A program made the translations under genes and the position numbers. Shown in pieces: positions 11,218-47,677 of a stretch of 64,000 bases of DNA. The DNA comes from Bdellovibrio sp. ZAP7 (GTDB taxonomy: Bacteria; Bdellovibrionota_B; Oligoflexia; Oligoflexales; RGVZ01). Position 1 is the stretch's first letter, and each line of letters starts with the position of its first letter. The DNA lies in contig CAMDKS010000003.1 in NCBI GenBank assembly GCA_945900755.1, forward strand, positions 17,031 to 81,030. Direction: 5' to 3'. The notes below the pieces were generated by a model. It saw only the letters and a program-made list of their open reading frames with translations, searched no databases and had not been told where the DNA came from.

Positions 11218-11245
11218 GCGGGCAGCATAATAAAGCGGTAGTACA
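11218..11245 (+). repeat. copy 1 of the 18-nt core repeat TAATAAAGCGGTAGTACA (28-nt match to copy 4)
   Basis: GCGGGCAGCATAATAAAGCGGTAGTACA differs at one position from the reverse complement of 47650..47677. Confidence 0.9.
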
Positions 11246-11296
11246 CCTTTTTTGTGGTAACATCAAGTGTAATGCTAGCACTCGGAGGACAGGCCA

Positions 11297-11701
11297 TTGA
11301 CAAAAACCGACGAGAAGAAATTAGTGCAATACTGGTCGACTTTGTCGGAGCACGATTGGGAGGTCATGCGTACGCTCTATAAAGGAAAAGTATTTGCTCA
11401 AGCACTATTTTTTCTTCATCTATCATTGGAAAAATTAATTAAATCGCAAATTGTGAAAGAATCTGGGGGGCACGCCCCATTTAGTCACGACTTGCCGTAC
11501 CTAGTAGGGAAAACAAGTTTGGAAGTTCCTGAACAAATCGTTGAGCAACTTAGGACAATAACAAGCTTCAATATGGAGGCTCGTTATCCGGATGAAAAAA
11601 TGGGGTTTTATAAGAAGGCTGACAAAAAATATACCTCCGAATGGATTGAGAGCGGAACAAGGATAAAGTTATGGCTAAAAAGTCAATTCGCAAAGAAGTA
11701 G
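11297..11701 (+). CDS. HEPN domain protein (toxin-like partner of the nucleotidyltransferase)
   Basis: 134 aa, helical, with an ...NMEARYPDE... motif typical of HEPN proteins paired with minimal nucleotidyltransferases. TTG start with GGAGGA 7 nt upstream. 31-nt overlap with the MNT gene. Confidence 0.65.
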   Translation: MTKTDEKKLVQYWSTLSEHDWEVMRTLYKGKVFAQALFFLHLSLEKLIKSQIVKESGGHAPFSHDLPYLVGKTSLEVPEQIVEQLRTITSFNMEARYPDEKMGFYKKADKKYTSEWIESGTRIKLWLKSQFAKK

Positions 11702-11988
11702 TCTCCCTCAAAAAGGCCCTCAAAAAGCGAAATGTGCCGGTAAAAATGTTGGTGCTATTTGGATCTCACGCCAGAGATATGGCGACTGAGCATAGTGATG
11801 TTGACATTTGTGTGGTTTGTGAAACTGGAAAAATCAAAGACCCAAAGAACCTACAAAGCCGCCTCAATTGCGATATGGGGTTGGCAGGCATTAATATGGA
11901 CGTTATTGTGACTACATATAAAGACTTCAAGCAGAACATGATTTCACCGATACTCCATGAAATTAGAACCTATGGTAAGGTGTTGTGA
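11671..11988 (+). CDS. minimal nucleotidyltransferase (MNT) domain protein
   Basis: LFGSHARDMATEHSDVDICVV matches the G[SG]-x(9-13)-DxD signature of the Pol-beta superfamily. Confidence 0.8.
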   Translation: MAKKSIRKEVVSLKKALKKRNVPVKMLVLFGSHARDMATEHSDVDICVVCETGKIKDPKNLQSRLNCDMGLAGINMDVIVTTYKDFKQNMISPILHEIRTYGKVL

Positions 11989-12013
11989 CCTGTAGTGCCG
12001 CAACAATCAATGT

Positions 12014-12040
12014 TAATAAAGCGGTAGTACAGGTAGTACA
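12014..12040 (+). repeat. copy 2 of the 18-nt core repeat, with a 9-nt internal duplication (GGTAGTACA x2)
   Basis: TAATAAAGCGGTAGTACAGGTAGTACA, in the same orientation as copy 1. Confidence 0.9.
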
Positions 12041-12051
12041 ATAAACAAAAC

Positions 12052-12084
12052 AAGGGCGAGGGAGTTGAAAACCCCCTCGCCCTT
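12052..12084. terminator. bidirectional rho-independent terminator
   Basis: Perfect 11-bp stem AAGGGCGAGGG / CCCTCGCCCTT with an 11-nt loop, A/T-rich on both sides, between convergent genes. Confidence 0.7.
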
Positions 12085-12101
12085 ATTTATTGGTGTCTAA
12101 A

Positions 12102-12803
12102 TTAGTTTGTACACTCACCGTCAGCAGCTTCGTGACCGACAACGCGAAGAACCCAATCACCGCGAAGGCCGTAAGCTACACTGTAGTTCCAACCGCCAGG
12201 AATAGCCATTAAAGTGTTTTTCTTAGGATTAGAAAGTCCATCAACGTCACGATAGACGCTTGGCAACCCAGCATGAGTAAACTCAAGAGCTGCGCCAATG
12301 AGTTCGCCGCCTTTTGCACAGCCAAGTTGACGACCATCACCGATTGCAGGAATATCATTCCAGTATGGGCCGGGAGTGATGTCAGCTGCGTTCTCGATAT
12401 CACGAGGCATAGACGGAGAATAGGCACCGTTTCCTGCGATTCCCATAGAAAAGAAAATAGCGGCACCGAGAATACTTGGATCAGCAGGCGTCATATTAAC
12501 ATTGCCCATTAAAACTCGGAAAAAATCGATTTTCATTTTTTTCACCGTGGCTGGAACTTCAAGCCAAACTCCAACTTGTTCGCCAGAAACAAATCCTTGT
12601 TGGATGAATGCAGAGCCATCATTGTCATTGAACGAATCGTTCTTAAGAACAATTTGAGTGGCCGAAGCAACTTCGGACATCGGTGTTTTAAACGTCATGA
12701 CCGACTCGCCTTTTGAACCGTCAAAAGCGAATGATTGGGATGCCATTGACAAGACACTTAGAGTAGATACAGAAAATACCAGAACGGAATGTGCTAGTTT
12801 CAT
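12102..12803 (-). CDS. secreted hypothetical protein
   Basis: ORF trimmed to MKLAHSVLVFSVSTLSVLSMASQSFA (signal peptide), with GGAGG 5 nt upstream of the ATG at 12803. I recognise no family. Confidence 0.5.
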   Translation of the reverse strand: MKLAHSVLVFSVSTLSVLSMASQSFAFDGSKGESVMTFKTPMSEVASATQIVLKNDSFNDNDGSAFIQQGFVSGEQVGVWLEVPATVKKMKIDFFRVLMGNVNMTPADPSILGAAIFFSMGIAGNGAYSPSMPRDIENAADITPGPYWNDIPAIGDGRQLGCAKGGELIGAALEFTHAGLPSVYRDVDGLSNPKKNTLMAIPGGWNYSVAYGLRGDWVLRVVGHEAADGECTN

Positions 12804-13773: not shown

Positions 13774-13784
13774 TCTAAGTCCAC

Positions 13785-14789: not shown

Positions 14790-14946
14790 CCATGGGGCTA
14801 GGTTTCAAAATTCTTATTGGACGTGCCAAGCTATTGTAGAATATTGCAGGATATTGGTGAATTGAGCAAATGATTGCTGAGTTAGTGCAATTTTTGGTGA
14901 TATAGTATTCTGACATTTATTCTATAACAATCTGGAGGGCAGTCCA

Positions 14947-16830
14947 TTGTCTCAAATTCGAAGTGCCAACAATAGCCAGATTACCACATCTTTAGCGGCT
15001 TTGGGAGTTGTCTTTGGCGACATTGGGACAAGCCCTCTCTATGCCATGCGTGAATGTTTTACGGGTAGTCATGGCGTCTCGCTTACCCCATCTAACATTT
15101 TTGGAGTTTTGTCGCTTATCCTATGGTCTTTAATATTTATCGTCTCGGTGAAATATCTAGCGTTCGTTATGAGAGCCGACAATAAGGGCGAGGGCGGAAT
15201 TCTAGCCCTGATGGCTCTACTCCTGCCAAAGGATGACCGTAAAGTTCGGAAGTATATTCAGCCCGTGGTCGCCATGGGTCTTGCGGGTGCTGTGCTTCTG
15301 TACGGCGACGGAATCATCACACCAGCTATTACAGTCCTCGGGGCTGTCGAGGGATTAAAAGTTGTGACCCCACTTTTTGAGCCCTATGTCATGCTCATTT
15401 CCCTTGGAATCATCATCGGGCTGTTTCTTATTCAGAGCAAAGGCACTGCAACGATAGGCAAGGTTTTTGGCCCAGTGATTCTTCTTTGGTTTGTCGTTTT
15501 GGCGGTCATGGGTGTTTACGGTATTTCAATGAATACCGGAATATTTGCAGCATTAAATCCTGGTCACGGAGTTTCATTTTTACTCGAAAACAAATTTCAT
15601 GGTTTTGTCGTGTTAGGTAGTATTTTCTTAGTCGTCACAGGGGGAGAAGCTCTATATGCCGACATGGGACACTTTGGACTTAAGCCCATACAGATGGGCT
15701 GGTTTTTTGTGGCACTTCCTTCGTTGCTGCTGCACTATTTCGGGCAAGGAGCACTTCTCCTAACTGTGCCCGAAGCGATTGCAAACCCGTTTTACGCATT
15801 GGCACCGTCCCAGCTTATATATCCATTGGTGGCACTTTCCACGGCAGCAGCCGTCATTGCGTCGCAAGCTTTGATTACTGGAGCGTTTTCCCTAACTCAG
15901 CAGGCTGTCCATCTAGGATTTTTACCGCGAATTAAAATTAAGCATACATCTGCTACCGAGCAAGGACAAATTTATATTCCATTTGCCAATTGGGCACTGA
16001 TGATTGGTACCGTGTTTGTAGTGGTCATGTTCAAAAATTCTAGCGCACTTGCCGCAGCGTACGGTATTGCTGTCACTGGTACGATGGCTATTACAACGAT
16101 CCTAACCTGTTTGGTGGCCTATCGACTCTGGCACTGGAATCTTGTGGCCGTTTGGACTGCTGCAATAGTGCTGTTAACCATAGATTTGGCTTTTCTTGGT
16201 GCCAATGCCCTAAAGATTGTTCACGGCGGATGGTTTCCTTTGTTGTTGGGACTCGGACTTTTTGTAATCATGACAACATGGAAGAGGGGGCGCCAAATAT
16301 TAGCCTCTCGAGTTCTATCTGCCATGAAACCCTTGGACCGATTTGTTGCCGAGACGGTGCCGTTGGTTAAGTTCAGGGTGCCAGGTGTGGCCGTTATGTT
16401 GACGGGTCGAACAGAAGGAATTCCGCCTGCACTCGCGCATAATTTGAAAATCAATAAAATTATTCACGAAAAGGTTATTTTGCTGACCGTGCTCACTCTC
16501 GACGTCGCCCATTGCGACGTAGCAGCTGAGCTATCGGTAGAGCCGGTGGGACCTGATTTTTACCGAGTTATTGCTCGTTACGGCTTCATGGACGAGCCAA
16601 ATGTCCCTGATGTCATCAGATTGTGCCAACAAAAGGGCCTGCCCGTAGATCCCGCGTCAGCCATCTATATTATCGGACGAGAAACGCTCATAGCCACAGA
16701 GGATCCCGGAATGGCTCTTTGGCGCGAGCAGCTATTCGCGTTTATGACCAGAAATGCCCAGAGTGCAATGACCTACTTCTCGTTGCCCGAGAAGCAGGTC
16801 ATTGAAATTGGGGTACAAATAAGAATTTAA
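14947..16830 (+). CDS. kup: KUP/HAK/KT potassium uptake protein
   Basis: GVVFGDIGTSPLYA near the N-terminus, about 12 TM segments and a cytoplasmic C-terminal domain. TTG start. Confidence 0.9.
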   Translation: MSQIRSANNSQITTSLAALGVVFGDIGTSPLYAMRECFTGSHGVSLTPSNIFGVLSLILWSLIFIVSVKYLAFVMRADNKGEGGILALMALLLPKDDRKVRKYIQPVVAMGLAGAVLLYGDGIITPAITVLGAVEGLKVVTPLFEPYVMLISLGIIIGLFLIQSKGTATIGKVFGPVILLWFVVLAVMGVYGISMNTGIFAALNPGHGVSFLLENKFHGFVVLGSIFLVVTGGEALYADMGHFGLKPIQMGWFFVALPSLLLHYFGQGALLLTVPEAIANPFYALAPSQLIYPLVALSTAAAVIASQALITGAFSLTQQAVHLGFLPRIKIKHTSATEQGQIYIPFANWALMIGTVFVVVMFKNSSALAAAYGIAVTGTMAITTILTCLVAYRLWHWNLVAVWTAAIVLLTIDLAFLGANALKIVHGGWFPLLLGLGLFVIMTTWKRGRQILASRVLSAMKPLDRFVAETVPLVKFRVPGVAVMLTGRTEGIPPALAHNLKINKIIHEKVILLTVLTLDVAHCDVAAELSVEPVGPDFYRVIARYGFMDEPNVPDVIRLCQQKGLPVDPASAIYIIGRETLIATEDPGMALWREQLFAFMTRNAQSAMTYFSLPEKQVIEIGVQIRI

Positions 16831-16862
16831 AACTTATGAAGCATCAAGTCCACTAAACTGGA

Positions 16863-17627
16863 CTATTTCAAGTTTACAAATGGAACAGAGCTACCCATCA
16901 TATACTGGGGTAGCTTTCCATCCCATTTTTGAACGGCCTCGTAGTCGACGAGCCCTTTATTGGCCTGCAAAGCTTGGGAGCGAATTCTCATTGATTTAGC
17001 TTCCGCTTCGGCGGCGATTACTTTTTGTTTAGCTTGTTCTTCAACTTCAACGGTTTTGTTTTTTGATTCCGAAGCTTTTTGCACAGCGATCACTTTGGCC
17101 TCAACGGCTTTTTCGTAGCCATCATCAAAATCAAGATTCGTAAAATCAATTCTCGTCACGACGATGTCCCGAGTCCGAAGACTTTCGACGAGTTGTTTGA
17201 AAACTGCAATTTTGGCTTCCTCGCGCTTTCCAACAAGGTCATCAGCAATATACTTACCAACAACGTCTTTAATGGAGCCCAAGGTCGCCGGCATCACCAT
17301 TTTTTTATCCCAATCCCAACCAAACTGCCGGTATATTTCGTTTACCTTTGTAGGGTCCGGATAGTAGGTCATGGCAAATGTAATGTTTACATTTTGAGTG
17401 TCGCGTGTAAAAGCTGGAGTGGTGTGCTCTAGTTTCTGCTCACGCACCTCAAATTCAGCGATGGCCGATGTGATTGGATTGTAAAAATGAAGACCTTCCG
17501 GCAAAGGCTCTCCTACTACTTTCCCAAATTCAGTTTGAATTCCTCGAAATCCAGTGTTGACTTGTTTAAAGCCACAGCTCACTAACGAAATAGTTGCTGC
17601 AGATATTATTAAGATTGAGGTGTTCAT
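16863..17627 (-). CDS. SPFH/Band-7 (prohibitin-like) lipoprotein
   Basis: LVSCG lipobox, followed by an SPFH domain and a coiled-coil tail (EEQAKQKVIAAEAEAKS). Confidence 0.8.
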   Translation of the reverse strand: MNTSILIISAATISLVSCGFKQVNTGFRGIQTEFGKVVGEPLPEGLHFYNPITSAIAEFEVREQKLEHTTPAFTRDTQNVNITFAMTYYPDPTKVNEIYRQFGWDWDKKMVMPATLGSIKDVVGKYIADDLVGKREEAKIAVFKQLVESLRTRDIVVTRIDFTNLDFDDGYEKAVEAKVIAVQKASESKNKTVEVEEQAKQKVIAAEAEAKSMRIRSQALQANKGLVDYEAVQKWDGKLPQYMMGSSVPFVNLK

Positions 17628-17745
17628 GGTGTTAGTTTCTCCAGCTATTGTGTGTGGGTCCTGTCGGGGCCGAGCCTACAGTAATCAATCTTTCCTGCAA
17701 CACGTTTGGGCTTAAGATTTGTTCAAAACTGTGGATTTTCGACAT

Positions 17746-17779
17746 GTTACGCGCCAACAAAAATCCATTGGCGCGTAAC
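17746..17779. promoter_or_regulatory. perfect 12-bp inverted repeat in a divergent promoter region
   Basis: GTTACGCGCCAA-N10-TTGGCGCGTAAC. The loop sequence AAAATCCA is complementary to TGGATTTT at 17732..17739. Confidence 0.5.
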
Positions 17780-17986
17780 AAAGGGTACCCAATGGTATAG
17801 AAATGATATTCAATACGACATCTTGGCTTGTTCATTCATAAAACTCATGGAATTTACGTCAATATGGCTGAATTGTAATAGTTTTAATTGATTATGTAAG
17901 TAAATGTCTTGATAAAGGGGTCCACTTTAGGTACATCTGAATTTTTGAACATCGTCCAATGCACCATTATTTTTAGGAGAGCCCCC

Positions 17987-20900
17987 ATGAACCACTGCCG
18001 CAATAGACTTTTGGTAACAATCCTCGGGCACTCGCTTCCATTTATCCTACTCGTTTCTGCTATGACTGAAAGTTGTACCAGGAAAATCAAGCAAGTCATC
18101 TACGTGCCGGTAAACACCGAAACTAAAGTCATCGTTGTCCAAGCTGGAAGCCTACCAAGTCCCAACTCAGGCGGCGGTGACATCGCTTACCTTGGGGGCA
18201 CTATATCGACGCAGGTCATTGGCGGTAAAGTATTTATTCCGGTTGAAGGAACGTTCAGTGACGCGAGTTTTTCCGACGTCCTAGCCACGGCTAGCTCGCA
18301 AGGCCTTAGCACTGCTGAGCGTAATGCAGTGCTGTCTCAAGAGGTTGGCGGTGTGCTCAAAGCCATCAGCACTAAAATGCCGGTTCTTCATTCAAAGATT
18401 GTTCCCGAAATTGGATTTTTTACGGCCTTGATACCATTTGAAGACTACGGGCGCCTATCCACCGTGACTGGTCTTTCTCATAGAATTCTTTTGAATCCCG
18501 TCCTCAGCACGCTACGTGGCCCAGAAACACTAGGGTTAAAAGCAGCGACGACTATGGTTTCTCTCGGCATCCATTCAGATACGCAGTCGAATGATGAAAG
18601 TGGTCGTGGGAATAATGATTCATTTAGTGGCCTTGAGCGAATTGGAGTCGATGAATTTATTGCCGCCGTCAAGAGAGATACAGACAGTGTGCCTGATGGC
18701 TCTGGTGTAGCCGTTGGTGTTAGCGATACGGGCGTCACGTTGAATCATCCTGCATTTGTTGATGCATCTGGAATACCCCGCATTTCGTATATGAAGGACT
18801 TCACTAACGAAGGTCTCATTTATTTTGCGGACAAGGCGAATTTTTCCGTCGAGGTGCCAACAACGGTTCCTGATGGTGTGGACGGCAGTCAGGCACTCCT
18901 GATCTCGGCCCAATACCTTTTAAGTCCTGGCGGCGTAGCGCTTCCAGTCGGCGACAATTTCCGGGAAGTGACGTCTCAATTATTCCTTTTGAGTCCTGCG
19001 CTAAAAGCGTCCCTGTTAGCTGAGAATTCTGGGGCTCGGCTCGGGGTCTTTTCTGAGTCTTCCTTCAAAAAAACTGATGGCTCTGAGGCCGTCGACTTGA
19101 ATCACAATGGCAAAGTGGACGATTTGCTGTGGGCCATTTTGATTCCCGACAGTGATCCGGCCAAAAGCAAAATGTATTTGGATACCAGCGGACGCAGCGA
19201 CTTCCGCAAAAGTGCTCCCGTTCAGGATTGGAACGCATCCAAATCCACGATCAAGGTATTTTCCGAGACGGTTGGATTTGAAATTAAATCCTTTCCTCTG
19301 CTTAATGGTGCAGGCGAAGAGGTGTCAGCGACTGCTTCGGCGATTGTCGGCTTCGACCCGGGCAATCACGGATCACACGTTTCAGGCATCATCGGCGCCC
19401 GCAAGACGATTACTAACGACTCAGACTCAACCAACGCGCGCGGCGTTGCGCCGAACACTAAAATCATGGTTAATCGAGTTTGCGCTAACAATGGCGGCTG
19501 TAACGCCACTGAGGCCATCATTGATTTGTCCCAGCACGGAGCTGAGGTCATCAACATGTCTCTCGGTGGGCTTGGACCAACGAACGACGGATATGCCGTT
19601 CAAGAAACGATCATCAATCGCCTCACACTTCTCAACAATACTCTCTTCGTCATCTCTGCTGGAAACTCAGGGCCTGGCCGTCAAACCGTAGGCAGTCCAT
19701 CCGTTGCTCGCATGGCGCTGAGTGTGGCAGCAACAGCATCGAAAAAAATGATTGAACGCCAGTATCAGAATCCAGGAACTGGAAAGTCGTCAGCAACCAC
19801 AGCTGAAGATGATTTCATGCTTTATTTCTCGAGTCGTGGCCCTACTGCCGCCGGAGGTCTCAAGCCAAATATTTCGGCGCCAGGAACCGAGCTAAGTTCA
19901 GTCCAACTTAATTCCGCTCCCGGAGATCGTTCAGGACTTGACGTCTATTGGGGAACCTCGATGGCGGCTCCAACGGTTACGGGAGCAGTGGCACTCCTGA
20001 TTGACGGGATTAAACGTTACAACCAAAAATTTCCCGGCAAGGCTCTTTCATTAGATGCGAGAACTCTCCACCGGATTATTTCAGCTAGTGCCCGTACGTT
20101 TGATGTGAGCTCGTATGACGTAGTCAGCGGTGAGCGCAAGCAAGGTCAGTACTCATGGATCGACCAAGGCCACGGCATGATTAACCTGCCTGCCGCATGG
20201 GAGGCTTTGAAGGCTGAACGGGATACTAGGGCTGCAGGCGCAGTGTTTGCTGGCAGTCAAGTCATGGACCTTGACTACGAAGTGCGCGTATTGAGCAAAT
20301 CTCCAAACGGTGAAGACTACACTGGTAGCATTGCGAGCCCGACAGATGCGAATGGTGGGACTGAACCCAAATTTGGACGCGGTATTTACCTTGATATGAA
20401 TTCTAAAGCTTCGCTGATCGAGGTGCAGATTGCGCGAAGACTACCATACAACGCGCTCCAACGTGAGGACGTTGGTGACCTCCACCGTTTACTGGTGACC
20501 ACTGCTGATCGTTTCATACTTAAGACGGTTATTTATGGTTCCTCTGTCGTTTGGTTGAGAGCTGGTGTTCTGGCTGGGTTGGATTGTGACGGATCTTTGG
20601 TTTCGGACCTTACCGTTCTTGGCTTAGGCGCCGTGGATGGGATTCCTGGCGGCACAACACCATCTACCGGTTTAGGCGCCAGCAACCTTCAAGTTTGTCT
20701 TAGTCGAAATCTTATGGCGACACTTCCTCCGGGAGACCATGGAGCCATCATCCGAGCCTTTCGCGTTAACAGTGATGGAACCCCTGAATCCACGCCTGCC
20801 TTCGAGGTCCCGGTATACGTGGCTGTTCCGCACGCAACGATGGCCGGACTTGCCGGCTACACGGTTAGCGGAACCGCTGCGAGTCATTCCGTTACCAGAA

Positions 20901-21916
20901 ACTATGTGCAGATCCCTGAGGGAACAAGCGTCGTAAAAATTACTCTGGAGGTGCCCGCACCGAAGGTCGCCGGCAATCAGGTTACCGGTTGCGCTGGCGT
21001 CAAGCTAGTCGTTCTGGAAGGTCAAAACACCGCTGAACCCGCTGAACTAAAACTAAATTCGCGTGCGCAAAACTGTTTAAAAAATGGAGAGATCGCCGCC
21101 GCAAGTAAACGTGTGGTCTCTTATTCTCGAATGAATCCAAGGGCGGGACTTTGGGACATCCATGTGTTTGGACAGGCCATGTTTAAAGATAGTCCCTACA
21201 CCCTGACAGTAGAGTTTGCTAAAGTTGCGACGTCAATCTCTGCCATTGATGGTGACACGTCGGCCCTTACTAGCAGCATGCTTTTTGATATTGTTGACTC
21301 ATCTATGGCTGCCATTCCCTCGACACTTAAAAGTGAATTTGCCTTAACTGGCTTGGCTCAAAAACAGATACCAACCATCAAGCATCAAGAAAGGCTAATT
21401 TTGGCCGACTTAGATGGAGCCAAGGGTCGCACCTATGACAGCACCACAGCGTCCGTTAATTTTTCAACCGGCGGCGCAGCTGGAAGTGACTTGGATTTGG
21501 AGGTTCTTGAGTGTACAGATGGCGCAAATATCCCTGACTCATGCAAGCTGATTGGAGGTAGCGGCGGTATGACAGATGTGGAGTCCTTTGATTTCGTACC
21601 GATGCCGGGCAAACTTTATGCCGCTAGGATTATTGGATATGAGGTTGCCAGCCTCCAAACGCCACTGGAAACAACGTTTGAATTTATCGAAACTCGTAAA
21701 TTCATCACTCAAGATCCGGGCACTCTGACCATTGCCGTTGTCCCTGGAGCGACCGATAAGTATAAGATTGACTATGCCTTTGATCTCGCTGCTTCGCTGA
21801 TTCTTCGTGACCCTTGCTTTATCAGTAGCCAGTGCTCTGCCATCGGAAATTTGACCGTCAAAGATGACGCCGGTGCAAGTCTGGTTCGTGTACCGGTGAC
21901 GGTCCACGGTCCCTAA
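17987..21916 (+). CDS. large secreted subtilisin-like (S8) serine protease
   Basis: Catalytic triad contexts VGVSDTGV (Asp), GNHGSHVSGIIGA (His) and GTSMAAPTVTGAVALL (Ser). ORF trimmed to the ATG at 17987, which follows AGGAG. Confidence 0.85.
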   Translation: MNHCRNRLLVTILGHSLPFILLVSAMTESCTRKIKQVIYVPVNTETKVIVVQAGSLPSPNSGGGDIAYLGGTISTQVIGGKVFIPVEGTFSDASFSDVLATASSQGLSTAERNAVLSQEVGGVLKAISTKMPVLHSKIVPEIGFFTALIPFEDYGRLSTVTGLSHRILLNPVLSTLRGPETLGLKAATTMVSLGIHSDTQSNDESGRGNNDSFSGLERIGVDEFIAAVKRDTDSVPDGSGVAVGVSDTGVTLNHPAFVDASGIPRISYMKDFTNEGLIYFADKANFSVEVPTTVPDGVDGSQALLISAQYLLSPGGVALPVGDNFREVTSQLFLLSPALKASLLAENSGARLGVFSESSFKKTDGSEAVDLNHNGKVDDLLWAILIPDSDPAKSKMYLDTSGRSDFRKSAPVQDWNASKSTIKVFSETVGFEIKSFPLLNGAGEEVSATASAIVGFDPGNHGSHVSGIIGARKTITNDSDSTNARGVAPNTKIMVNRVCANNGGCNATEAIIDLSQHGAEVINMSLGGLGPTNDGYAVQETIINRLTLLNNTLFVISAGNSGPGRQTVGSPSVARMALSVAATASKKMIERQYQNPGTGKSSATTAEDDFMLYFSSRGPTAAGGLKPNISAPGTELSSVQLNSAPGDRSGLDVYWGTSMAAPTVTGAVALLIDGIKRYNQKFPGKALSLDARTLHRIISASARTFDVSSYDVVSGERKQGQYSWIDQGHGMINLPAAWEALKAERDTRAAGAVFAGSQVMDLDYEVRVLSKSPNGEDYTGSIASPTDANGGTEPKFGRGIYLDMNSKASLIEVQIARRLPYNALQREDVGDLHRLLVTTADRFILKTVIYGSSVVWLRAGVLAGLDCDGSLVSDLTVLGLGAVDGIPGGTTPSTGLGASNLQVCLSRNLMATLPPGDHGAIIRAFRVNSDGTPESTPAFEVPVYVAVPHATMAGLAGYTVSGTAASHSVTRNYVQIPEGTSVVKITLEVPAPKVAGNQVTGCAGVKLVVLEGQNTAEPAELKLNSRAQNCLKNGEIAAASKRVVSYSRMNPRAGLWDIHVFGQAMFKDSPYTLTVEFAKVATSISAIDGDTSALTSSMLFDIVDSSMAAIPSTLKSEFALTGLAQKQIPTIKHQERLILADLDGAKGRTYDSTTASVNFSTGGAAGSDLDLEVLECTDGANIPDSCKLIGGSGGMTDVESFDFVPMPGKLYAARIIGYEVASLQTPLETTFEFIETRKFITQDPGTLTIAVVPGATDKYKIDYAFDLAASLILRDPCFISSQCSAIGNLTVKDDAGASLVRVPVTVHGP

Positions 21917-21956
21917 CAAGATTTTGAGGAAAAAGGTAAGATTCTGCTCAAAAAGA

Positions 21957-21978
21957 CTCTGGCGCGAAAGCGCCAGAG
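21957..21978. terminator. bidirectional terminator hairpin
   Basis: CTCTGGCGC-GAAA-GCGCCAGAG between convergent genes. Confidence 0.6.
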
Positions 21979-21983
21979 ACTTG

Positions 21984-22967
21984 TTAAGTTGCCAGGTCGT
22001 AACCCATCATTCCACTAATCCCACCTGTATGGACCAGTAAAATGCGGCCTCTGCAGTTTTGTCCGGTGATGAGATCAAAGGCTCGCATAAATAATTTTGC
22101 ACTATAGACGGGGTCAACAAGGATCCCGTGACGTCTGGCCATGTGCCTGATGAATTCAAATAATTGGGCGTTTGTTGCGCCATAGGATCTCGGCTTTAGA
22201 GGGCGGTATACTCGCACAAAAGGAACCACATCATCCCAAGTAATTTTCGTGACGGGAGTTATCCAGGACTGAAAGGCCTTTTGAACTTGTTCTTCGAAAC
22301 CGGCCATTTGCACGATATGCAGTTTAGTCGATTTATGGGCACCACGCATCAGCAGTCCTGCAGCGAGACTGCCCGCACTAAGAGCGGTGCCACTGTCCAT
22401 AAAAATATGCGCCGGCGGAATATGATCCGGCCACTCTATTCGTGGCCTTAGAATATCTTCGGCAAGCGTCAGGCAACCTGCTACAGCGGCCTCACACCCA
22501 CCACCCTCATCAAGGATTAGTGACGACTCCCCTTTAGCTGTGAGCTCTGCTGCGAAGCAGCGCATGCGTTCAGATATCGAGTCCTTTTCGCTGCGCGCGA
22601 CAATAATGAGATTTTCTGGCGGCAGAGCCAAACGGATGAGCATGCGATTGCCAGTGCGTGGACCTGTTGCGTCGTCGTGGTCTTGCACTGCGAATGCGGT
22701 GACGGTCAATCCCGCTTCGGCACACAGCACAGCTGCGGCGGCCAAATTATTGGAGTTCACTCCGCCCGTGGTAATAATATGTGAGATATTGTTTTCGTGA
22801 CAAAATTTTGTGATCGAAGCGTATTTTCGAAATTTTGTGCCCCAAAAACCACCGAGCTCATCGTCACGCAAAACCCACAGACTGCGATCTGTCCATTCAG
22901 GAAGATAGGCATCACCCTCAATTAGATTTTTACCTAGTTTGGTTAAGCGAGATTCAAGTCGTTTCAT
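21984..22967 (-). CDS. PLP-dependent ACC deaminase / D-cysteine desulfhydrase family enzyme
   Basis: LRDDELGGFWGTKFRKY (PLP-lysine context) and a fold-type II C-terminal region. Confidence 0.75.
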   Translation of the reverse strand: MKRLESRLTKLGKNLIEGDAYLPEWTDRSLWVLRDDELGGFWGTKFRKYASITKFCHENNISHIITTGGVNSNNLAAAAVLCAEAGLTVTAFAVQDHDDATGPRTGNRMLIRLALPPENLIIVARSEKDSISERMRCFAAELTAKGESSLILDEGGGCEAAVAGCLTLAEDILRPRIEWPDHIPPAHIFMDSGTALSAGSLAAGLLMRGAHKSTKLHIVQMAGFEEQVQKAFQSWITPVTKITWDDVVPFVRVYRPLKPRSYGATNAQLFEFIRHMARRHGILVDPVYSAKLFMRAFDLITGQNCRGRILLVHTGGISGMMGYDLAT

Positions 22968-23008
22968 GGATTAATTTCTGCATGAGCAGAGGAGGATTCA
23001 GGAAGGGA

Positions 23009-23085
23009 TGGTGCGGGTACGCTGACTCGAACAGCGGACCTCCACGATGTCAACGTGGCGCTCTAACCAACTGAGCTATACCCGC
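23009..23085 (-). tRNA. tRNA-Val (anticodon GAC), CCA encoded
   Basis: Reverse complement folds as GCGGGTA|TA|GCTC-AGTTGGTTA-GAGC|G|CCACG-TTGACAT-CGTGG|AGGTC|CGCTG-TTCGAGT-CAGCG|TACCCGC|A|CCA. Confidence 0.9.
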
Positions 23086-23271
23086 GCACTATGTTGGAAC
23101 CAAGAGTTATAGACTGCTGCCCATGACTATGTCAAGGCTCTATAGGAAAGGGCTACTTCTTTCTGAATTTGGTCGTTGAAACGTCATTCTGCCACATCTG
23201 TAATAGTATTTACAGGCGCGTAAAATTTGGCGCCCATCGCCCGAATAGCATGCTTTTTATTCTCTGCACCT

Positions 23272-23311
23272 CCGCTTTATTAAGCAGGCGGCTTAATAAA
23301 GCGGTAGTACA
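23272..23311 (+). repeat. copy 3 of the core repeat, here as a complete hairpin
   Basis: CCGCTTTATTAAGC-AGGCG-GCTTAATAAAGCGG is a perfect 14-bp stem, followed by TAGTACA. Confidence 0.9.
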
Positions 23312-23414
23312 CAGCTTGCAACAATTCCGAGGAAGAAATACCTGCCACACTTTGATTTGCGATGGACTGCATGGCACCTAGAATAGCTATTTTTATCAGG
23401 TCGTTTGTAGTCAT
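23280..23414 (-). CDS. possible 44-aa small ORF ending inside repeat copy 3
   Basis: Below the ORF-track cutoff. GAGGGTAAA-ATG context. Translation is MTTNDLIKIAILGAMQSIANQSVAGISSSELLQAVYYRFIKPPA. No family recognised and it may be non-coding. Confidence 0.25.
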   Translation of the reverse strand: MTTNDLIKIAILGAMQSIANQSVAGISSSELLQAVYYRFIKPPA

Positions 23415-23430
23415 TTTACCCTCGCATATC

Positions 23431-23483
23431 AGCTCATTGTGAGCTAATACTGCAATATTAGCTCATATTGAGCTGATATTGCA
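23431..23483. promoter_or_regulatory. cluster of AGCTCA-N3-TGAGCT palindromes
   Basis: AGCTCATTGTGAGCT at 23431..23445. A 33-nt near-palindrome TGCAATATTAGCTCATATTGAGCTGATATTGCA at 23451..23483. A third AGCTCA half-site at 23491 and an AACCAA-N5-TTGGTT hairpin at about 23503..23519. Confidence 0.4.
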
Positions 23484-23571
23484 AAGAATAAGCTCAATAT
23501 GAACCAATATTCTTGGTTGACGTACCCAACCGCACGGTCTTGAGTATCAAGCCGAGGGAGTTATCGGGAAT

Positions 23572-24795
23572 TTACCGAACCGTTGGTGCATGTTGCCTAA
23601 AGTATTCACCTGCGACCAAAGCGGCAGCAATACCCACGTTTAGGCTTTGAACGGCGCCGGTACCCGGAATTGTAATCATGCCCTCTGAAGCCTTACGAGC
23701 GTCAGGCGAAAGCCCCCGTGCCTCGTTGCCAAGCATGACTGCGAGACGTGCAGGTAGCGCGCCTCCAGTACCTGGTTGATAAAGATTAATGCGGCCTTTT
23801 AATGCGGTGCCGAGCACACTCATGCCGCGCTGACGAAGCTCTGTCGAAATGAGGCTGATAGAAGGACCGGAAATAAATTCTACGGATTCGCCGCCGCCCT
23901 CAGCTGTGCGTAGCAATGCTGCGGAAGGTTTGAAATCCTTTTCGTTTGGTAGAACAACATAACGACATCCAAAATTTGCAGCACTGCGAAGAATGGCGCC
24001 GACATTGTGTGGGTTGGCAACGTCTTCCAGAATTAATACCAAGGAAGCGGCTGATTCGTTTTCATCGAGTTGCGCTAGAAAATTTACCCAGCTTGGTGGC
24101 AAGCGTCTTTTTGCGATAATGCATACGCCCTCGTGGTGCGTGCTCCCAGAGATCTTGTCCATGTCTTCTGAGGTAACCACATGGTAGGCCTTCCGCTTGA
24201 GGCAACATGATTTCACGAGTTCGGAAAATTCTTCGAGACGAGCTTCTACGAGATACACGCGAATGATATCGTGAGGCCGAGAGTCATGTAATTTTTGACA
24301 GGCGTTATACCCACAAAGCTTAATTTCATCAAGATTTCCCTTACCCCGTGCCACTTCAGGCATGGCGCGAAGTGGACGAACATAGGGAATGGCCGTTGTG
24401 GAAATCGTGTCGCGAGCTGTGGAGACGGGAGCTGGGGTCATAGCTTGTGCAGAACGGCTAGGTGCGGCCGTCGATGTGCTTGAATAGACTGGACGGTCTG
24501 AATTCCTTTGGGGAGGCTGACTTGAATAGCTTGGACGATCTGAAGACCTAGGAGCCGACGTGCTGGAATAACTTGGACGATCTGAAGACCTAGAATCTGA
24601 CGTACTGGAGTACGAGCCCTTTGAGGGCGAGGTGCTTGAGTATGATCCTTTGCTCGAAGAATCTGAGGTGCTGGAGTATGAGCCCTTAGACGACGAGGTG
24701 CTCGCGTAGGAGCCCTTCTGTTCTGATGCTTGGTTGGTTCTAAATGGCATGGAAGTCCTTTGCTTTATTGGGAAGTCTAGGTCATTCTGGTTCAT
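23572..24795 (-). CDS. RlmB-like SpoU rRNA methyltransferase with a Ser/Tyr-rich tandem-repeat N-terminal extension
   Basis: The C-terminal 250 aa carry SpoU motifs (NPHNVGAILRSAANFG, MLGNEARGLS, IPGTGAVQSLNVGIAAAL). The N-terminus contains KGSY(A/S)STS x4 and SDRP(S/V)YSS x3. Confidence 0.8.
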   Translation of the reverse strand: MNQNDLDFPIKQRTSMPFRTNQASEQKGSYASTSSSKGSYSSTSDSSSKGSYSSTSPSKGSYSSTSDSRSSDRPSYSSTSAPRSSDRPSYSSQPPQRNSDRPVYSSTSTAAPSRSAQAMTPAPVSTARDTISTTAIPYVRPLRAMPEVARGKGNLDEIKLCGYNACQKLHDSRPHDIIRVYLVEARLEEFSELVKSCCLKRKAYHVVTSEDMDKISGSTHHEGVCIIAKRRLPPSWVNFLAQLDENESAASLVLILEDVANPHNVGAILRSAANFGCRYVVLPNEKDFKPSAALLRTAEGGGESVEFISGPSISLISTELRQRGMSVLGTALKGRINLYQPGTGGALPARLAVMLGNEARGLSPDARKASEGMITIPGTGAVQSLNVGIAAALVAGEYFRQHAPTVR

Positions 24796-25094
24796 TTATA
24801 CGGCTCCCTGGATCTCCGCTTTTAGGCGGCAGATATAATTAACGAATTAATTAAACATTTCAGGGGCTGGTCATACATGGTTTTCATGTTGGGCTCAATA
24901 GTTTTATTGGTTTTTATCATTATTTAAAGACGCCTCCCTCGAATTTGTATTGACTTATAATAGGCCCACCCCAAAAAGCACCACTTTCTTAGAAATATTA
25001 CAAAAACAGATTGAAATCAATACTAAGCCTTGCTATATGGAGCGTTCCCAGATAGCGGACACCAGTCCCATAAATAGCACCCTAAGGAGCATGT

Positions 25095-26273
25095 ATGAAT
25101 AGCAGTCAACTTCCCGTCGTTAAAATGAAAACCCCAAAGAGATTTTCTCATCCCTGGGTTTTCCAAAAAATGGTGGAACGTCCGAATGCAGAAATTCGTC
25201 CGCGCAACGGCTCTGTTGTTGATCTTGTCGATACCGATGGAAGTTGGATTGGGCGAGGCCTTTACAATGGCCATTCACGCATTGGGGTTCGACTACTTAC
25301 AGACAATAGCTTTGAAGAGATCAACGAAGATTTTTTCGTCGATCGTTTTTACCGAGCATTAAAACTCCGTCGCGATGTTTTAAAATTAGATGACGTAACC
25401 AACGCCTACCGCCTCATTCACTCCGAAGCTGATGGCCTAAGCGGGTTGGTCATCGACCGTTACGGCGATTTAATCGTGATCGAATATTTTTCAAGCGGCA
25501 TGTACCGTTTGCATAAAGTGATTGAATCAGCCCTTCTTAAGATTTTTCCGGGTTCAAAAATTTATTTCTTTGCGGAAGAACACGTCCAAAAACAAGAGTC
25601 CATAGACATTCGAAGTCCCCAGCCACCAGAGCCAGTGGTCATTCAAGAGCATGGCTTAAACTTCCGAGTGGCACCAGGGTCCAAGCACAAAACAGGATTC
25701 TTCTGCGATCAGCGTGACAATCGCAAGTTGTTAGCCGATATGACGCAAGGTGGTCGTGTGCTTGATATTTGCTGCAATAGCGGTGGATTTGCTGTGTACG
25801 CGAAAACCTTGGGCGGCGCCAGTGAAGTCACGGGTCTTGATCTTGATGAAGACGTCATTGAGTTAGCGAAAAAAAATGCAGACTTAAACAATGCCGATAT
25901 CAATTTTGTGCATGCGGATCTTTTTCCTTGGTTGCGTGAAGCTGCGGCAAAAAAGCAAACGTGGGACATGGTTGTGCTAGACCCATCCAAGCAAACCAGA
26001 AGCAAAGATGATATTATTGGTGCACTAAAGAAGTACTGCGACATGAACCGTAGCGCGATTTCCGTCGTGAAGCCGGGCGGGGTCTTTGTGACATTCTCCT
26101 GTACAGGGCTCGTTAGCGAAGAAGATTTCCTTGAGTCGATTCGGCGTGGAGCGTTTCAAGCCAAACGTGAGCTTCAGATTTTCAAAATTACGGGCGCCGC
26201 AGGCGATCACCCTCACTTGGTCAATGTTCCAGAGAGTCGTTACCTCAAGGCTGTCTGGGCTCGCGTCTGGTAA
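25095..26273 (+). CDS. rlmI: PUA-domain class I SAM-dependent rRNA (m5C) methyltransferase, RlmI-like
   Basis: PWVF...G.V..V N-terminal PUA-like region, then VLDICCNSGGFAVYA and VLDPSK motifs. Confidence 0.75.
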   Translation: MNSSQLPVVKMKTPKRFSHPWVFQKMVERPNAEIRPRNGSVVDLVDTDGSWIGRGLYNGHSRIGVRLLTDNSFEEINEDFFVDRFYRALKLRRDVLKLDDVTNAYRLIHSEADGLSGLVIDRYGDLIVIEYFSSGMYRLHKVIESALLKIFPGSKIYFFAEEHVQKQESIDIRSPQPPEPVVIQEHGLNFRVAPGSKHKTGFFCDQRDNRKLLADMTQGGRVLDICCNSGGFAVYAKTLGGASEVTGLDLDEDVIELAKKNADLNNADINFVHADLFPWLREAAAKKQTWDMVVLDPSKQTRSKDDIIGALKKYCDMNRSAISVVKPGGVFVTFSCTGLVSEEDFLESIRRGAFQAKRELQIFKITGAAGDHPHLVNVPESRYLKAVWARVW

Positions 26274-26276
26274 GTT

Positions 26277-44880: not shown

Positions 44881-44926
44881 TTTATTCCTTCCTTCGCCTC
44901 TCAAAATCGAGGCAAAAGGTACGAAG

Positions 44927-45835
44927 CTAGTTCAACGAATTCGAAACTTTCGAAATATACAGAACCAGCCAAACAACTGGTCCAGCAAACAATACTCCAT
45001 CAATTCGGTCCAAAAGTCCACCGTGGCCAGGCAGCAAAGACCCGGAATCTTTAACACCAGTAAACCGCTTTATGACCGACTCCACGAGGTCACCCATTTG
45101 TCCAGAGATGCCGCCACAAAAACCGCAAGCTAAGGTAGTGCCAAGGCTAACAGTGCTTTGTTCGGGATTATAGACATACCACATCCATGCACCTGCCACA
45201 CTTGCCAGAAGTCCTGCAAAGGCTCCTTCCCAAGTCTTTTTGGGACTTTTATGTGGTGCTAACTTATGCTTTCCAAAAAACCTACCGCCGAAATATCCGC
45301 CCGTATCTCCCATCCAAACGACGATGAGTACCAAAATCAAATATTGAGCATTTTGCGCTTTTGCATACAGCTCCCAAATGACCAACCAAGGGAATCCTGC
45401 ATAAACAAGGGTAATAATAAAGCCCAAAATCCGCGCCATTTCGGCCTCGATACCGCGGGTAGCAAACACACCCGCCAACATGGCAAAAATCAAGCCAAAA
45501 ACCACAATTCCTCGTCCAGCCTCTAAATCATAAAAAGCTGAAACGACAAAAATCACGTTCATAACTAAGCTACAAAACAAAGCCAGATGTCGGTAGTGTG
45601 CCGAGCCTTTAGCCGCCACATAGACCTCCTTCGCCTCACCCTGGGCGCCATCAACAGCGGCATAATTTCGCAGCAATTCATCCAATCGCGGCTGAATCAT
45701 CATCGACATTTCACCGACGGAAATGGTGATGAGGATCACGAGAAATATCGCAACACCCCATGCAGGACCATAAATTAATAGTGCGAGAAGCAACGGCAAC
45801 AAGACGGCCGCAGTTAGAATTCGGGCTTTCAGCAT
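44927..45835 (-). CDS. cdsA: phosphatidate cytidylyltransferase
   Basis: Polytopic protein with C-terminal SVIKRFTGVKDSGSLLPGHGGLLDRID. Confidence 0.85.
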   Translation of the reverse strand: MLKARILTAAVLLPLLLALLIYGPAWGVAIFLVILITISVGEMSMMIQPRLDELLRNYAAVDGAQGEAKEVYVAAKGSAHYRHLALFCSLVMNVIFVVSAFYDLEAGRGIVVFGLIFAMLAGVFATRGIEAEMARILGFIITLVYAGFPWLVIWELYAKAQNAQYLILVLIVVWMGDTGGYFGGRFFGKHKLAPHKSPKKTWEGAFAGLLASVAGAWMWYVYNPEQSTVSLGTTLACGFCGGISGQMGDLVESVIKRFTGVKDSGSLLPGHGGLLDRIDGVLFAGPVVWLVLYISKVSNSLN

Positions 45836-46632
45836 AATGGAAGGCCTTGATTAGTGGCTGGTGAATGGCTATCCACCACCTTTGGCCGACCATCAATCAA
45901 TCCAAAACGTCGCTCCCGAGAATAGAATTTTTGCAAGGCCAAAGAAAATTCAGCTCTTGAAAAATCTGGCCACATGACAGGAGAAAAATGAAACTCTGCG
46001 TAAGCAGATTGCCAAAGAAGAAAATTACTAATGCGCATTTCACCGCTAGTTCTTATGACAAGATCAGGATCTGGAAGTCCTGTCGTATCCAAGTTCAGGG
46101 AAATCATTTCTGCGGTTATGTCCTCGGGTTTAATTTCGCCACGAGCGACTTTGTGGGCTAGGGCTTGAGTCGCTCTAGTAATTTCTGCACGACCGCCATA
46201 ACTGAGGGCTACGTTTAAAATCAGTCCGGTATTGCTCGCCAGCATTCTCTTAGTTTCATCGAGCAAACGTTGCAAGGTAGGAGACAACCGCGAATAATCA
46301 CCAATAATTTGACATCGGACATTTTGGCGATTGAGTTCATCGCGTTCTTTTCCAAGATAGTGTTCGATGAGTTTCATGATGACGCCGACTTCTTCCGCCG
46401 GCCGCCCCCAATTTTCATCACTAAACGCATAAAGAGTGAGTACTTCAATGCCCCATTGGCCTGCTTGCTCAACAATTTCGCGAACACGTTCGGCGCCATG
46501 CTTATGCCCGAAAACGCGAGGCCGCCCTTGTTGTTTGGCCCAACGACCGTTTCCATCCATAATCATAGCAACATGACGAGGCATGGCGTCGCAAGGAATT
46601 GGAAATGGTAATGAAGAACCAGAAGAGGACAT
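45829..46632 (-). CDS. uppS: undecaprenyl diphosphate synthase
   Basis: HVAMIMDGNGRWA and RTSGEMRISNFLLWQ. Confidence 0.9.
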   Translation of the reverse strand: MSSSGSSLPFPIPCDAMPRHVAMIMDGNGRWAKQQGRPRVFGHKHGAERVREIVEQAGQWGIEVLTLYAFSDENWGRPAEEVGVIMKLIEHYLGKERDELNRQNVRCQIIGDYSRLSPTLQRLLDETKRMLASNTGLILNVALSYGGRAEITRATQALAHKVARGEIKPEDITAEMISLNLDTTGLPDPDLVIRTSGEMRISNFLLWQSAYAEFHFSPVMWPDFSRAEFSLALQKFYSRERRFGLIDGRPKVVDSHSPATNQGLPLC

Positions 46633-46762
46633 TTAAAAATTCCAAAATAACTGACGATAAATTCAGTATATTATTGCTGACACAAAATAGCCCCGAGGTG
46701 TAACATAAAGACCATTCAGCGTCTAGAACATTGCGGAACCAACTCTAACATATGGAAATTAA

Positions 46763-47605
46763 ATGAATAATGTAAAAAATGCACCCCAAATGGGTACCCT
46801 TTGGATGGCTGCGACGACGCTTGGGGATATGCGAGATATACCGCTGAGATCATTAGAAGTTCTTCGAGATTGCCCGTTCCTTATTTTTGAGGAGGATAAG
46901 CAAGCTCGGCAGTTTTTAAAAGCAGCGGGCGTTCAGAGGCAATGGATGCGCTACACCGAACAGCGCGAAGCCTTCACCCTCGAAGAGCTAGAAATGGAAC
47001 TTCGTGCGGGCCGTGACGCTGTCTACATGAGTGATCAAGGAACACCAGGCCTTGCAGATCCGGGCCGAGATTTGGTCGAGGTTGCCATTCGCATTGGAGC
47101 GAGGCTGCGGGTGGTACCTGGCCCAAGCTCATTAACCGCAACCATTTCCGTGTGTCCTATTGATTGCCGGAGGTTTCAGTTTGCAGGTTTTGCACCACGA
47201 GATGAGGAGGACCGCGAGGCCTTTTTAGTTCAGCATTTAGATCACCCGTGGCCAGCCGTTTTTTTTGACACTCCGTACCGAATGAAGCATTTTTTCGAAA
47301 CTCTGGCCAAAGTTTTAAAGGGGTCTGAACGCAAAGTTTTTGTGGGCGTAGACATCAGCGGCGAAAAAGAGGCCTTTTGGTGGGACATCGCTGAAAATCT
47401 ATTGAAAAAAGTGGCACTCCTTGAAGAGAGGCAAAACTATGTGGTTATCGTCCAAGGCAACGGCCGAGAGCTGATCAAAACAAAATCCGCACTTCCCGGC
47501 AAATCATTTGCTGGTCCCAAGCCCAAAAATCGCGAAGATCGCTCTCAGGCGGCTCAACAAAAATTACGAAACAAAACCCCACGCAAGCCAGGAAGCCGTC
47601 GATAG
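46763..47605 (+). CDS. rsmI: 16S rRNA (cytidine1402-2'-O)-methyltransferase, with a basic C-terminal tail
   Basis: Tetrapyrrole-methylase fold motifs DQGTPGLADPG and VVPGPSSL. Confidence 0.8.
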   Translation: MNNVKNAPQMGTLWMAATTLGDMRDIPLRSLEVLRDCPFLIFEEDKQARQFLKAAGVQRQWMRYTEQREAFTLEELEMELRAGRDAVYMSDQGTPGLADPGRDLVEVAIRIGARLRVVPGPSSLTATISVCPIDCRRFQFAGFAPRDEEDREAFLVQHLDHPWPAVFFDTPYRMKHFFETLAKVLKGSERKVFVGVDISGEKEAFWWDIAENLLKKVALLEERQNYVVIVQGNGRELIKTKSALPGKSFAGPKPKNREDRSQAAQQKLRNKTPRKPGSRR

Positions 47606-47649
47606 GCTCTGGTGCAAAACTGTATTGCCATAATAAACAGAAACTGCCC

Positions 47650-47677
47650 TGTACTACCGCTTTATTATGCTGTCCGC
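47650..47677 (-). repeat. copy 4 of the core repeat (inverted orientation)
   Basis: TGTACTACCGCTTTATTATGCTGTCCGC is the reverse complement of GCGGACAGCATAATAAAGCGGTAGTACA. Confidence 0.9.

Follow-up and report, generated by a model that had tools for sequence, protein, structure and literature searches.

A recurrent 18-nt motif is very probably the outer end of a decayed IS481-like insertion sequence in an Oligoflexales genome

The 18-nt motif that recurs four times in the window (the whole 64-kb stretch of DNA analysed here) very probably forms the outer end of an insertion sequence (IS) that resembles IS481 and that has multiplied and since decayed in this Oligoflexales genome. The copies would then be ordinary transposon scars, which mark the rearrangement or gain of toxin-antitoxin (TA) and defence genes. 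The motif consists of the 3' end of a transposase gene together with the inverted repeat of the element; the limits of the element, the pattern of its decay and the breaks in synteny were likewise observed directly.

Results

The original prediction placed four exact copies of the 18-mer at 11228..11245, 12014..12031 and 23294..23311 (+ strand) and at 47650..47667 (- strand), and all four were confirmed there. By chance none would be expected in the window, and 100 shuffles gave 0 matches. The genome-wide count over 2.9 Mb was 27 exact copies, or 55 when up to 3 mismatches were allowed. All genomic copies continue inward into a longer common sequence, and on the outside they diverge right after ...GTACA.

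Read on its own strand, the motif gives ...TPEVDGLITSFKRTA-TAA-TAA, after which come ...GCGGTAGTACA as the terminal bases. The 18-mer comprises the tandem stops of the transposase (TAA TAA) and the outermost 12 bases of the right terminal inverted repeat (...AGCGGTAGTACA), and the same-strand translation, ...YFNGRRPHQG...TPEVDGLITSFKRTA with two stops, is a DDE transposase C-terminus. The suggestion that the motif is the conserved 3' end of a gene was thus correct as to the gene end, but the gene is the transposase of the element itself and lies on the strand opposite to the one translated earlier. The antisense peptide VYYRFI(M/K)(L/P)PA with its stop is literally there; however, it is a by-product, and the real coding strand is that of the 18-mer (...SFKR(T/A)A with two stops). 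An antisense gene ending in YYRFI...PPA was rejected at copy 3, where a 44-aa minus-strand ORF (23280-23414) merely runs into the element, and at copy 1, where no gene enters from that side.

A 1,062-bp IS copy was reconstructed by joining contigs C5 and C13 via a 149-nt exact overlap. Its left repeat starts TGTAGTGCCGCAATAATCA and its right repeat ends TAATAAAGCGGTAGTACA; the tips are TGTA...TACA and the inverted repeats are imperfect. The element codes for one HTH and DDE (rve_3) transposase of ~310-330 aa, which nearly fills it. Intact homologues of 312-331 aa, 66-77% identical, were found in metagenomes. Their DNA has the ends TGTAATACCGC...GCGGCAGTACA, and since these ends carry different flanks in different contigs, the tips of the element are fixed. 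In the intact relatives P0002-P0004 and P0008 (312-331 aa), the transposase is a single ORF without programmed frameshift, which for P0002 was checked on four contigs of ~1.0-1.2 kb. The terminal inverted repeats are of the TGT...ACA type (TGTAGTGCC... and ...GGTAGTACA in this genome, G000; TGTAATACC...GCAGTACA in L071-L074), and the element in L071 is ~1,033 bp long.

The reconstructed product scored 97.5 bits against the NCBIfam IS481 model versus 65.7 for IS3, with Pfam matches to rve_3 and HTH_32. For the transposases of the intact relatives, IS481 (103-116 bits) was the top match over IS3 (66-95 over all queries). IS481 elements are ~1-1.3 kb in size. The element resembles this family in its single-ORF rve-type DDE transposase with an N-terminal HTH, its TGT...ACA termini and its length of ~1.03-1.06 kb (PMC10045372), but differs in that its IS481 scores (98-116 bits) all fall below the curated NCBIfam cut-off of 224 bits, at about half of it, and in that its host lineage here (Oligoflexales, Bdellovibrionota) holds only decayed copies. 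This IS481-like element of Oligoflexales apparently has no existing name.

Copy 1 is a 57-nt right-end stub (IS positions 1006-1062; 11189..11245, + strand), recognised by BLAST and translation. The final 13 codons of the transposase (EVDGLITSFKRAA) are followed in it by TAA TAA and by the right inverted repeat, whose tip is at 11245, and the similarity of the stub to ~35 other right ends begins at 11189 and ends at 11245. Copy 2 (11991..12031, + strand) is a 41-nt minimal element, in which a left tip (IS 1-24, TGTAGTGCCGCAACAATCAATGTT), matching ~30 other left ends, is fused to a right tip (IS 1045-1062). The 9-nt internal duplication noticed earlier in copy 2 is a tandem duplication of the right tip, with a second GGTAGTACA at 12032..12040 (+ strand). 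Similar tip duplications were seen in L007, L016 and C2:66028-66119.

The 745 nt from the right tip of copy 1 to the left tip of copy 2 are occupied by a HEPN and MNT nucleotidyltransferase toxin-antitoxin pair (11297..11988, + strand) of low GC (0.39). HEPN lies at 11297-11701 (Pfam HEPN, 1.2e-11) and MNT at 11671-11988 (NTP_transf_2, 8e-11; assigned to PDC-S09 by PADLOC). At this locus, the pair was absent from the sister species G002 and all other relatives examined. As in a composite transposon, the pair takes up exactly the stretch from one IS remnant's right tip to the left tip of the following remnant, the two being in direct orientation, and PIN, DUF6036 and Fic/DUF4258 cargo is bracketed likewise elsewhere in the genome. 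Altogether, 7 segments of the genome have outward-facing tips on both sides, and TA or defence genes are present in 4 of them. Copies 1 and 2 may have formed the inner ends of a composite transposon, since decayed, with HEPN-MNT as its cargo. Unlike in such transposons, the flanking IS now measure just 57 and 41 nt, which leaves any mobility as a unit hypothetical, and two separate insertions next to a cassette already in place would give the identical picture.

The exact bracketing of HEPN-MNT by two direct copies, and the recurrence of TA or defence genes between tips elsewhere, would also suit a recognition site of att- or attC-like site-specific recombination that assembles accessory cassettes. 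We regard this reading, raised in the original prediction, as highly improbable, as the motif has been demonstrated to be a DDE transposase gene end with its inverted repeat. The genome search found only one tyrosine recombinase (Phage_integrase) and one serine recombinase (Resolvase) gene, at C18:10.8 kb and C26:8.7 kb, neither of them consistently near the copies. Cassette arrays were not found in the genome either, and the copies point either way and include stubs of every length.

Copy 3 (23265..23311, no strand assigned) is a palindromic mini-element of 47 nt, in which 5 nt separate an inverted right tip from a second right tip (IS 1062-1031 / 1031-1062). The perfect 14-bp hairpin described for it is present as a core (CCGCTTTATTAAGC / GCTTAATAAAGCGG), and the full arms are 24 nt with 83% complementarity. 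Its homology to a paralogous G012 sequence stops exactly at 23264/23265; this is the one boundary of copy 3 that paralogues confirm. The hairpin, its intergenic position and the adjoining GTAG recall the palindromes of REP type that a RAYT (Y1) transposase spreads, in which GTAG would be the tetranucleotide of the cleavage site, and the genome does carry one Y1_Tnp gene. This reading has, in our judgement, next to no chance of being right. The GTAG simply belongs to the IS inverted repeat. Palindromes are limited to the mini-elements, where two IS tips abut, whereas most copies are non-palindromic and the long ones extend into the transposase coding sequence, being transposase gene ends. The Y1_Tnp gene (C5:15180-15500) is >13 kb from any copy, the nearest copies on C5 lying at 1.8 kb and 63 kb, and no RAYT gene is associated with the motif. 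Moreover, the copies number tens, not hundreds. REP/RAYT was accordingly rejected on the anatomy of the long copies and the distance of the Y1 gene.

Copy 4 (47650..47677, - strand) is a 28-nt right-end stub (IS 1035-1062) with the tip at 47650 and the element interior to the right. As had been noted, it matches copy 1 over 28 nt with a single difference, GCGG[G/A]CAGCATAATAAAGCGGTAGTACA. A second piece of that IS, from its interior (positions 365-421; 49216..49272, - strand) lies 1.5 kb away in the same orientation as copy 4, with 91% identity to the reconstructed IS. Between these two pieces of one IS copy lies an ATPase_2/DUF234 gene of 468 aa (47738..49144, - strand; Pfam), which resembles the defence candidate PDC-S27 (PADLOC, 328.7 bits) and is absent from G002 by synteny. 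The gene has 11 paralogues in the genome. Three of the 11 were within 200 nt of IS fragments versus a background of 2.8% (p ~0.003), a weak link, for which the shared location of both in accessory regions is the best explanation.

Gene order was compared with the sister species G002 and five other relatives, which are different species (~70-80% nucleotide identity), so that gene order, and not precise empty sites, is the basis for the history of insertions. An inversion with inserted genes (HEPN-MNT and orf255) at the breakpoint was found at copies 1 and 2. Beside tRNA-Val, an insertion of ~425 nt (23147-23571), which contains copy 3 and extends between tRNA-Val and a SpoU gene, was lacking in G002. 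At copy 4, there is a 1.7-kb ATPase insertion with the copy at its edge. At the right-hand breakpoint of the inversion (14790-14946), no recognisable IS remnant was seen. The comparison with the sister species, which lacks the insertions at all these sites, upheld the claim that the motif sits at the border of accessory genes; neither result that the original prediction had named as refuting, a uniform scatter of the motif across the genome or relatives without insertion/deletion polymorphism at these sites, was seen.

Within the genus, the element is confined to G000, G010, G012 and G013. Its coverage in this genome is U-shaped, with 32 and 33 copies of the two tips versus 3-6 of the interior, and every left-right derivative has its own deletion junction. 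The best local IS copy has a disrupted start and a frameshift, and the local copies are pseudogenes. No intact IS copy was found in G000, 30 relatives or the JGI metagenome contigs; the 12 JGI contig matches were mostly chance, with L087 the only true remnant by appearance. Copies 1 and 4 are exact break points of independent assemblies, as is expected from a multi-copy repeat, and exact-protein look-ups gave only contigs ending at repeats.

The whole picture is one of ordinary IS decay, and its one oddity is the lack of detectable target-site duplications. IS481 elements normally make duplications of 2-15 bp, mostly 6 bp (PMC10045372). In contrast, none was detectable here in the 24 elements keeping both tips, when anchored direct repeats (exact up to 28 nt, and identity at 4, 6, 9 and 15 nt) were compared with partner-shuffled controls; just a preference for C/G at the base outside each tip was seen. 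Palindromic targets were looked for alongside, and none was found.

Discussion

The suggestion of a MITE-like hairpin held in so far as copies 2 and 3 are miniature inverted-repeat remnants, while its REP/RAYT part was unsupported. Known MITE families measure roughly 100-400 bp, and the derivatives here are far shorter and differ also by having no target-site duplications. Small, non-coding pieces bounded by inverted repeats of the parent IS, as in IS-derived MITEs and solo inverted-repeat remnants (PMC10969869), are represented by copy 2 (41 nt, left and right tips) and copy 3 (47 nt, right and right tips). Dispersed copies of one architecture exist for the palindromes: seven 46-47-nt right/right palindromes occur at unrelated loci in G000, and others are present in G010. 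Palindromes such as copy 3 may have moved as miniature elements.

It could further be proposed that the four copies are active non-autonomous MITEs, which were inserted at these sites as miniature elements and mobilised in trans by a transposase, rather than the product of in-situ decay of full-length insertions. Besides the palindromes, the ~8-fold over-representation of the tips versus the interior speaks for this proposal. Nevertheless, we consider it unlikely. The left-right derivatives, copy 2 included, all have unique deletion junctions and were not amplified from one master; copies 1 and 4 are single-tipped, and with one end only a piece is unable to transpose. The genome search revealed no intact transposase, target-site duplications are lacking, and the U-shaped coverage is equally expected from neutral deletions which cannot enter the selected flanks. 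Because the copies are only 80-95% identical, any amplification must be old.

We favour the decay of full-length insertions. The IS would have multiplied in one branch of an Oligoflexales genus, its activity in this lineage being judged solely from copy number, and this genome now keeps dead copies only. Deletions within the selectively neutral interior have very probably shrunk the copies to end stubs and to left/right or right/right tip remnants, and the four copies in the window would be the scars of at least three insertions. IS copies may then have served as entry points or as portable homology for the inversion and for the gain of the HEPN-MNT pair and the defence-like ATPase. The order of these events is our reconstruction.

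The lack of target-site duplications and the palindromic mini-elements of 47 nt are the sole points of possible interest to transposon specialists, the rest being mostly housekeeping. As a speculation to which we give a small chance, this IS481-like clade may integrate without target duplication, recognising only a C/G base beside each tip, with a 21-nt terminal repeat being enough for mobilisation. If so, the right/right palindromes of 47 nt would function as MITEs, at a size far below that of the known families, and the tip pairs would be a portable system which shuttles TA and defence cassettes in Oligoflexales.

The identification of the motif as an IS end accounts for a striking repeat and for several breaks in the assembly of this MAG, and it supplies boundaries for an IS481-like element of Oligoflexales. 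In addition, the accessory HEPN-MNT pair and the PDC-S27-like ATPase are found to be located in scars of transposons, which is of help in defining how much of these genomes is mobile.

The 18-mer marks the end of a mobile element

The original prediction had placed four exact copies of the 18-mer TAATAAAGCGGTAGTACA in the window, at 11228, 12014 and 23294 on the forward strand and at 47650 on the reverse strand, and all four were recovered there (0 expected by chance). Its description of the copies also held: copies 1 and 4 had 28 nt in common with a single mismatch, copy 2 carried a duplicated 9-nt GGTAGTACA, and copy 3 formed a hairpin with a perfect 14-bp core. The assembly of the source genome G000 (2.91 Mb, 65 contigs; window at C3:17031-81030) contained 27 exact copies, and 55 at up to 3 mismatches. 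When aligned, the copies had a common sequence on one side, extending up to ~60 nt or beyond (...ACGCCTGAAGTGGACGGTCTAATCACCAGTTTTAAGCGGACAGCA-TAATAAAGCGGTAGTACA), and diverged right after ...GTACA; this one-sided similarity with abrupt divergence is the signature of a mobile-element end. Outside G000, 17 of the 20 loci with the exact 18-mer belonged to three sister Oligoflexales MAGs, and the upstream sequence was unrelated at the remaining 3. Independent assemblies break at the repeats.

The parent insertion sequence

On the motif strand, the common sequence translated as ...YQEYFNGRRPHQG...TPEVDGLITSFKRTA followed by TAA TAA, which is the C-terminus of a DDE transposase with its stop codons within the terminal repeat. 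Contig C5 starts inside the same transposase gene and overlaps the end of contig C13 by 149 identical bases. By joining C13 and C5 across this overlap, we reconstructed a 1,062-bp element, whose left end was TGTAGTGCCGCAATAATCAATG and whose right end, ...CATAATAAAGCGGTAGTACA, was an imperfect inverted repeat of it. The top NCBIfam match of its product was IS481 (97.5 bits, cut-off 224), followed by IS3 (65.7); Pfam rve_3 and HTH_32 were also matched. Intact homologues of 312-331 aa (66-77% identical) were found in a large protein database, mostly on 1.0-1.5-kb contigs. The DNA of a stromatolite-metagenome homologue begins with TGTAATACCGC and finishes with GCGGCAGTACA, and since its flanks vary from contig to contig, the tips of the element are fixed at TGTA...TACA.

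Compared to these intact relatives, the best G000 copy is missing the start codon, and its N-terminal region is frameshifted. Neither G000 nor 30 relatives yielded an intact copy. Among same-genus genomes searched for the transposase, six gave no match and four others gave distant matches only (28-30% identity, or one short fragment). The explanation of the window copies is an ordinary one: an IS481-like insertion sequence, apparently unnamed, has decayed and left its ends.

Other readings of the repeat were rejected. For a REP/RAYT system, the sole Y1 transposase gene was separated from every copy by >13 kb, and the copies were mostly non-palindromic. For an att-type recombination site, the genome search found one tyrosine and one serine recombinase, neither linked to the copies, and there were no arrays. 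Separately, the profile search of G000 returned a single Phage_integrase-type match (C18:10782-11282), which is unexpectedly few because a XerC/XerD pair would be missing; this scarcity may reflect the first-look filter of the search or the 90% completeness of the MAG.

Decay of the family

A BLAST search with the reconstructed element detected 87 fragments in the genome, totalling 10.5 kb. Coverage along the element followed a U: each tip was present in 32-33 copies but the interior in only 3-6. Both tips were retained in 20 elements. The internal junction differed in each left-right element, for example positions 1-56 joined to 402-478 and 976-1062, 1-24 joined to 988-1062, or 1-138 joined to 1047-1062; in window copy 2, 1-24 was joined to 1045-1062. 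Since all junctions differ, the left-right elements are independent deletion products. The U-shaped coverage is consistent with neutral deletion confined to the element, presumably because deletions reaching selected flanking genes are lost. Dead copies shrink through internal deletion, with the tips remaining as scars.

Seven palindromes of 46-47 nt consisted of an inverted right tip, 5 nt and a right tip (positions 1062-1031 joined to 1031-1062). They occupy unrelated loci, and the relative G010 holds some too. The common architecture suggests a small MITE-like family that includes window copy 3; it is possible that these are active MITEs, a reading which applies to the 47-nt palindromes only. 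Tandem tip duplications were found in copy 2, in loci L007 and L016, and at C2:66028-66119. In a 1,274-bp structure at C26:36818-38091, a small HicB/UPF0150-like gene lies on the opposite strand between two inverted right ends of the element, one of 113 nt and the other of 665 nt.

IS481 members normally generate target duplications of 2-15 bp (PMC10045372). In contrast, no target-site duplication was detectable in 24 two-tipped elements, as judged by exact matching up to 28 nt with offsets allowed, by identity at 4-15 nt and by mirror symmetry. The sole preference seen was for C (62%) or G (28%) as the base outside each tip. Only two features are unusual: that target duplications are missing and that the palindromic derivatives are so small.

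Copies 1 and 2 at the HEPN-MNT locus

We compared the gene order with that of six relatives, among them G002, a genome of the same genus in 8 contigs. The genes upstream of copy 1 were collinear through a methyltransferase gene (10183-11040). Then follow copy 1, a 57-nt right-end stub (11189-11245), a low-GC HEPN-MNT toxin-antitoxin pair (11297-11988), copy 2, a 41-nt left-tip/right-tip remnant (11991-12031), a terminator (12048-12088) and orf255, all absent at this locus in the six relatives. Past orf255, the next genes, an FNR-like gene and orf334, were inverted relative to all six, and no remnant of the element was found at the right inversion breakpoint (14790-14946). The HEPN-MNT pair exactly fills the interval from a right tip to a left tip in direct orientation, which corresponds to the interior layout of a composite transposon. 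Two separate insertions might also have left this arrangement.

Beyond the breakpoint, a block at 14947-21916 encodes a Kup K+ transporter, an SPFH/Band-7 protein and a 1,335-aa S8 subtilase, and has no counterpart at the syntenic place of G002. The neighbouring block (21984-27029) was inverted and moved by ~55 kb relative to G002. A second dispersed repeat of ~65 nt (ATTCGCCGAGATCCTTCGCCTGCGGCTCAGGACACGTC-CTGGCGCTTTCGCGCCAG), unrelated to the IS481-like element and with a GC-rich hairpin at its end, has at least 20 genome copies (window 21954-21987 and 49272-49317; C7:82217, C31:8053, C1:37702, C23:6973, C6:26556 and others). In the window, it lies at the right edge of the 14.9-21.9 kb block without a syntenic counterpart in G002 and also beside the element fragment at site 4. 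It is directly adjoined, at the end of the subtilase gene, by a third repeat of ~40 nt (21911-21953), which has copies on C12, C30, C14, C15, C35 and C27.

Copy 3 at the tRNA-Val locus

Copy 3 sits within ~425 nt (23147-23571) missing from G002, where the tRNA-Val(GAC) and SpoU genes are directly adjacent. Homology with a paralogous sequence of the relative G012 ends precisely at the outermost base of the mini-element. The same segment holds a 116-nt non-coding element (23149-23264; AGGGCTACTTCTTTCT..TTGAAACGTCATTCT...), which has two paralogues in G012 and is also represented by paralogues in G010 and G004. Its features are a promoter-like TTGAAA-17-TGTAAT and a hairpin (GGCGC/GCGCC) with a T-run after it, and in G012 an AGGAGA ribosome-binding site lies downstream. 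It gave no Rfam match at the gathering threshold, and may be a conserved promoter, leader or small RNA. A 44-aa minus-strand ORF (23280-23414), the end of which runs into the mini-element, is closely preceded upstream by three overlapping, operator-like inverted repeats (ATATCAGCTCA..TGAGCTGATAT type; 23426-23511).

Copy 4 and the ATPase gene

Copy 4 is a 28-nt right stub (47650-47677), followed by a 468-aa ATPase_2/DUF234 gene (47738-49144) that G002 lacks and that matches the PADLOC defence candidate PDC-S27 along its entire length. Beyond the gene, at 49216-49272, lies a 57-nt piece from the interior of the same element, oriented like copy 4. The ATPase gene therefore lies between two pieces of one element. 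The 2.9-Mb G000 genome has 11 paralogues of this gene (28-36% identical), at 47738-49144 and 10 other loci, and five sister genomes hold further ones; 3 of the 11 lay <200 nt from fragments of the element, against a background of 2.8% (p ~0.003).

Cargo and proposed mechanism

Genome-wide, toxin-antitoxin or defence-type genes were carried by 4 of the 7 segments bracketed by outward-facing tips: HEPN-MNT; PIN; HTH with DUF6036; and DUF4258, Fic and AAA/DUF4143. In IS481/IS3-type elements, the transposase binds both terminal repeats and moves the element. By homology, the transposase of the G000 element would bind its two terminal repeats and cause transposition, and the 18-mer would be conserved because it is the putative transposase-binding tip and at the same time overlaps the 3' end of the transposase gene. 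Copies of the element may serve as entry points and as portable homology, which would account for the position of the scars at an inversion breakpoint and at inserted cassettes.
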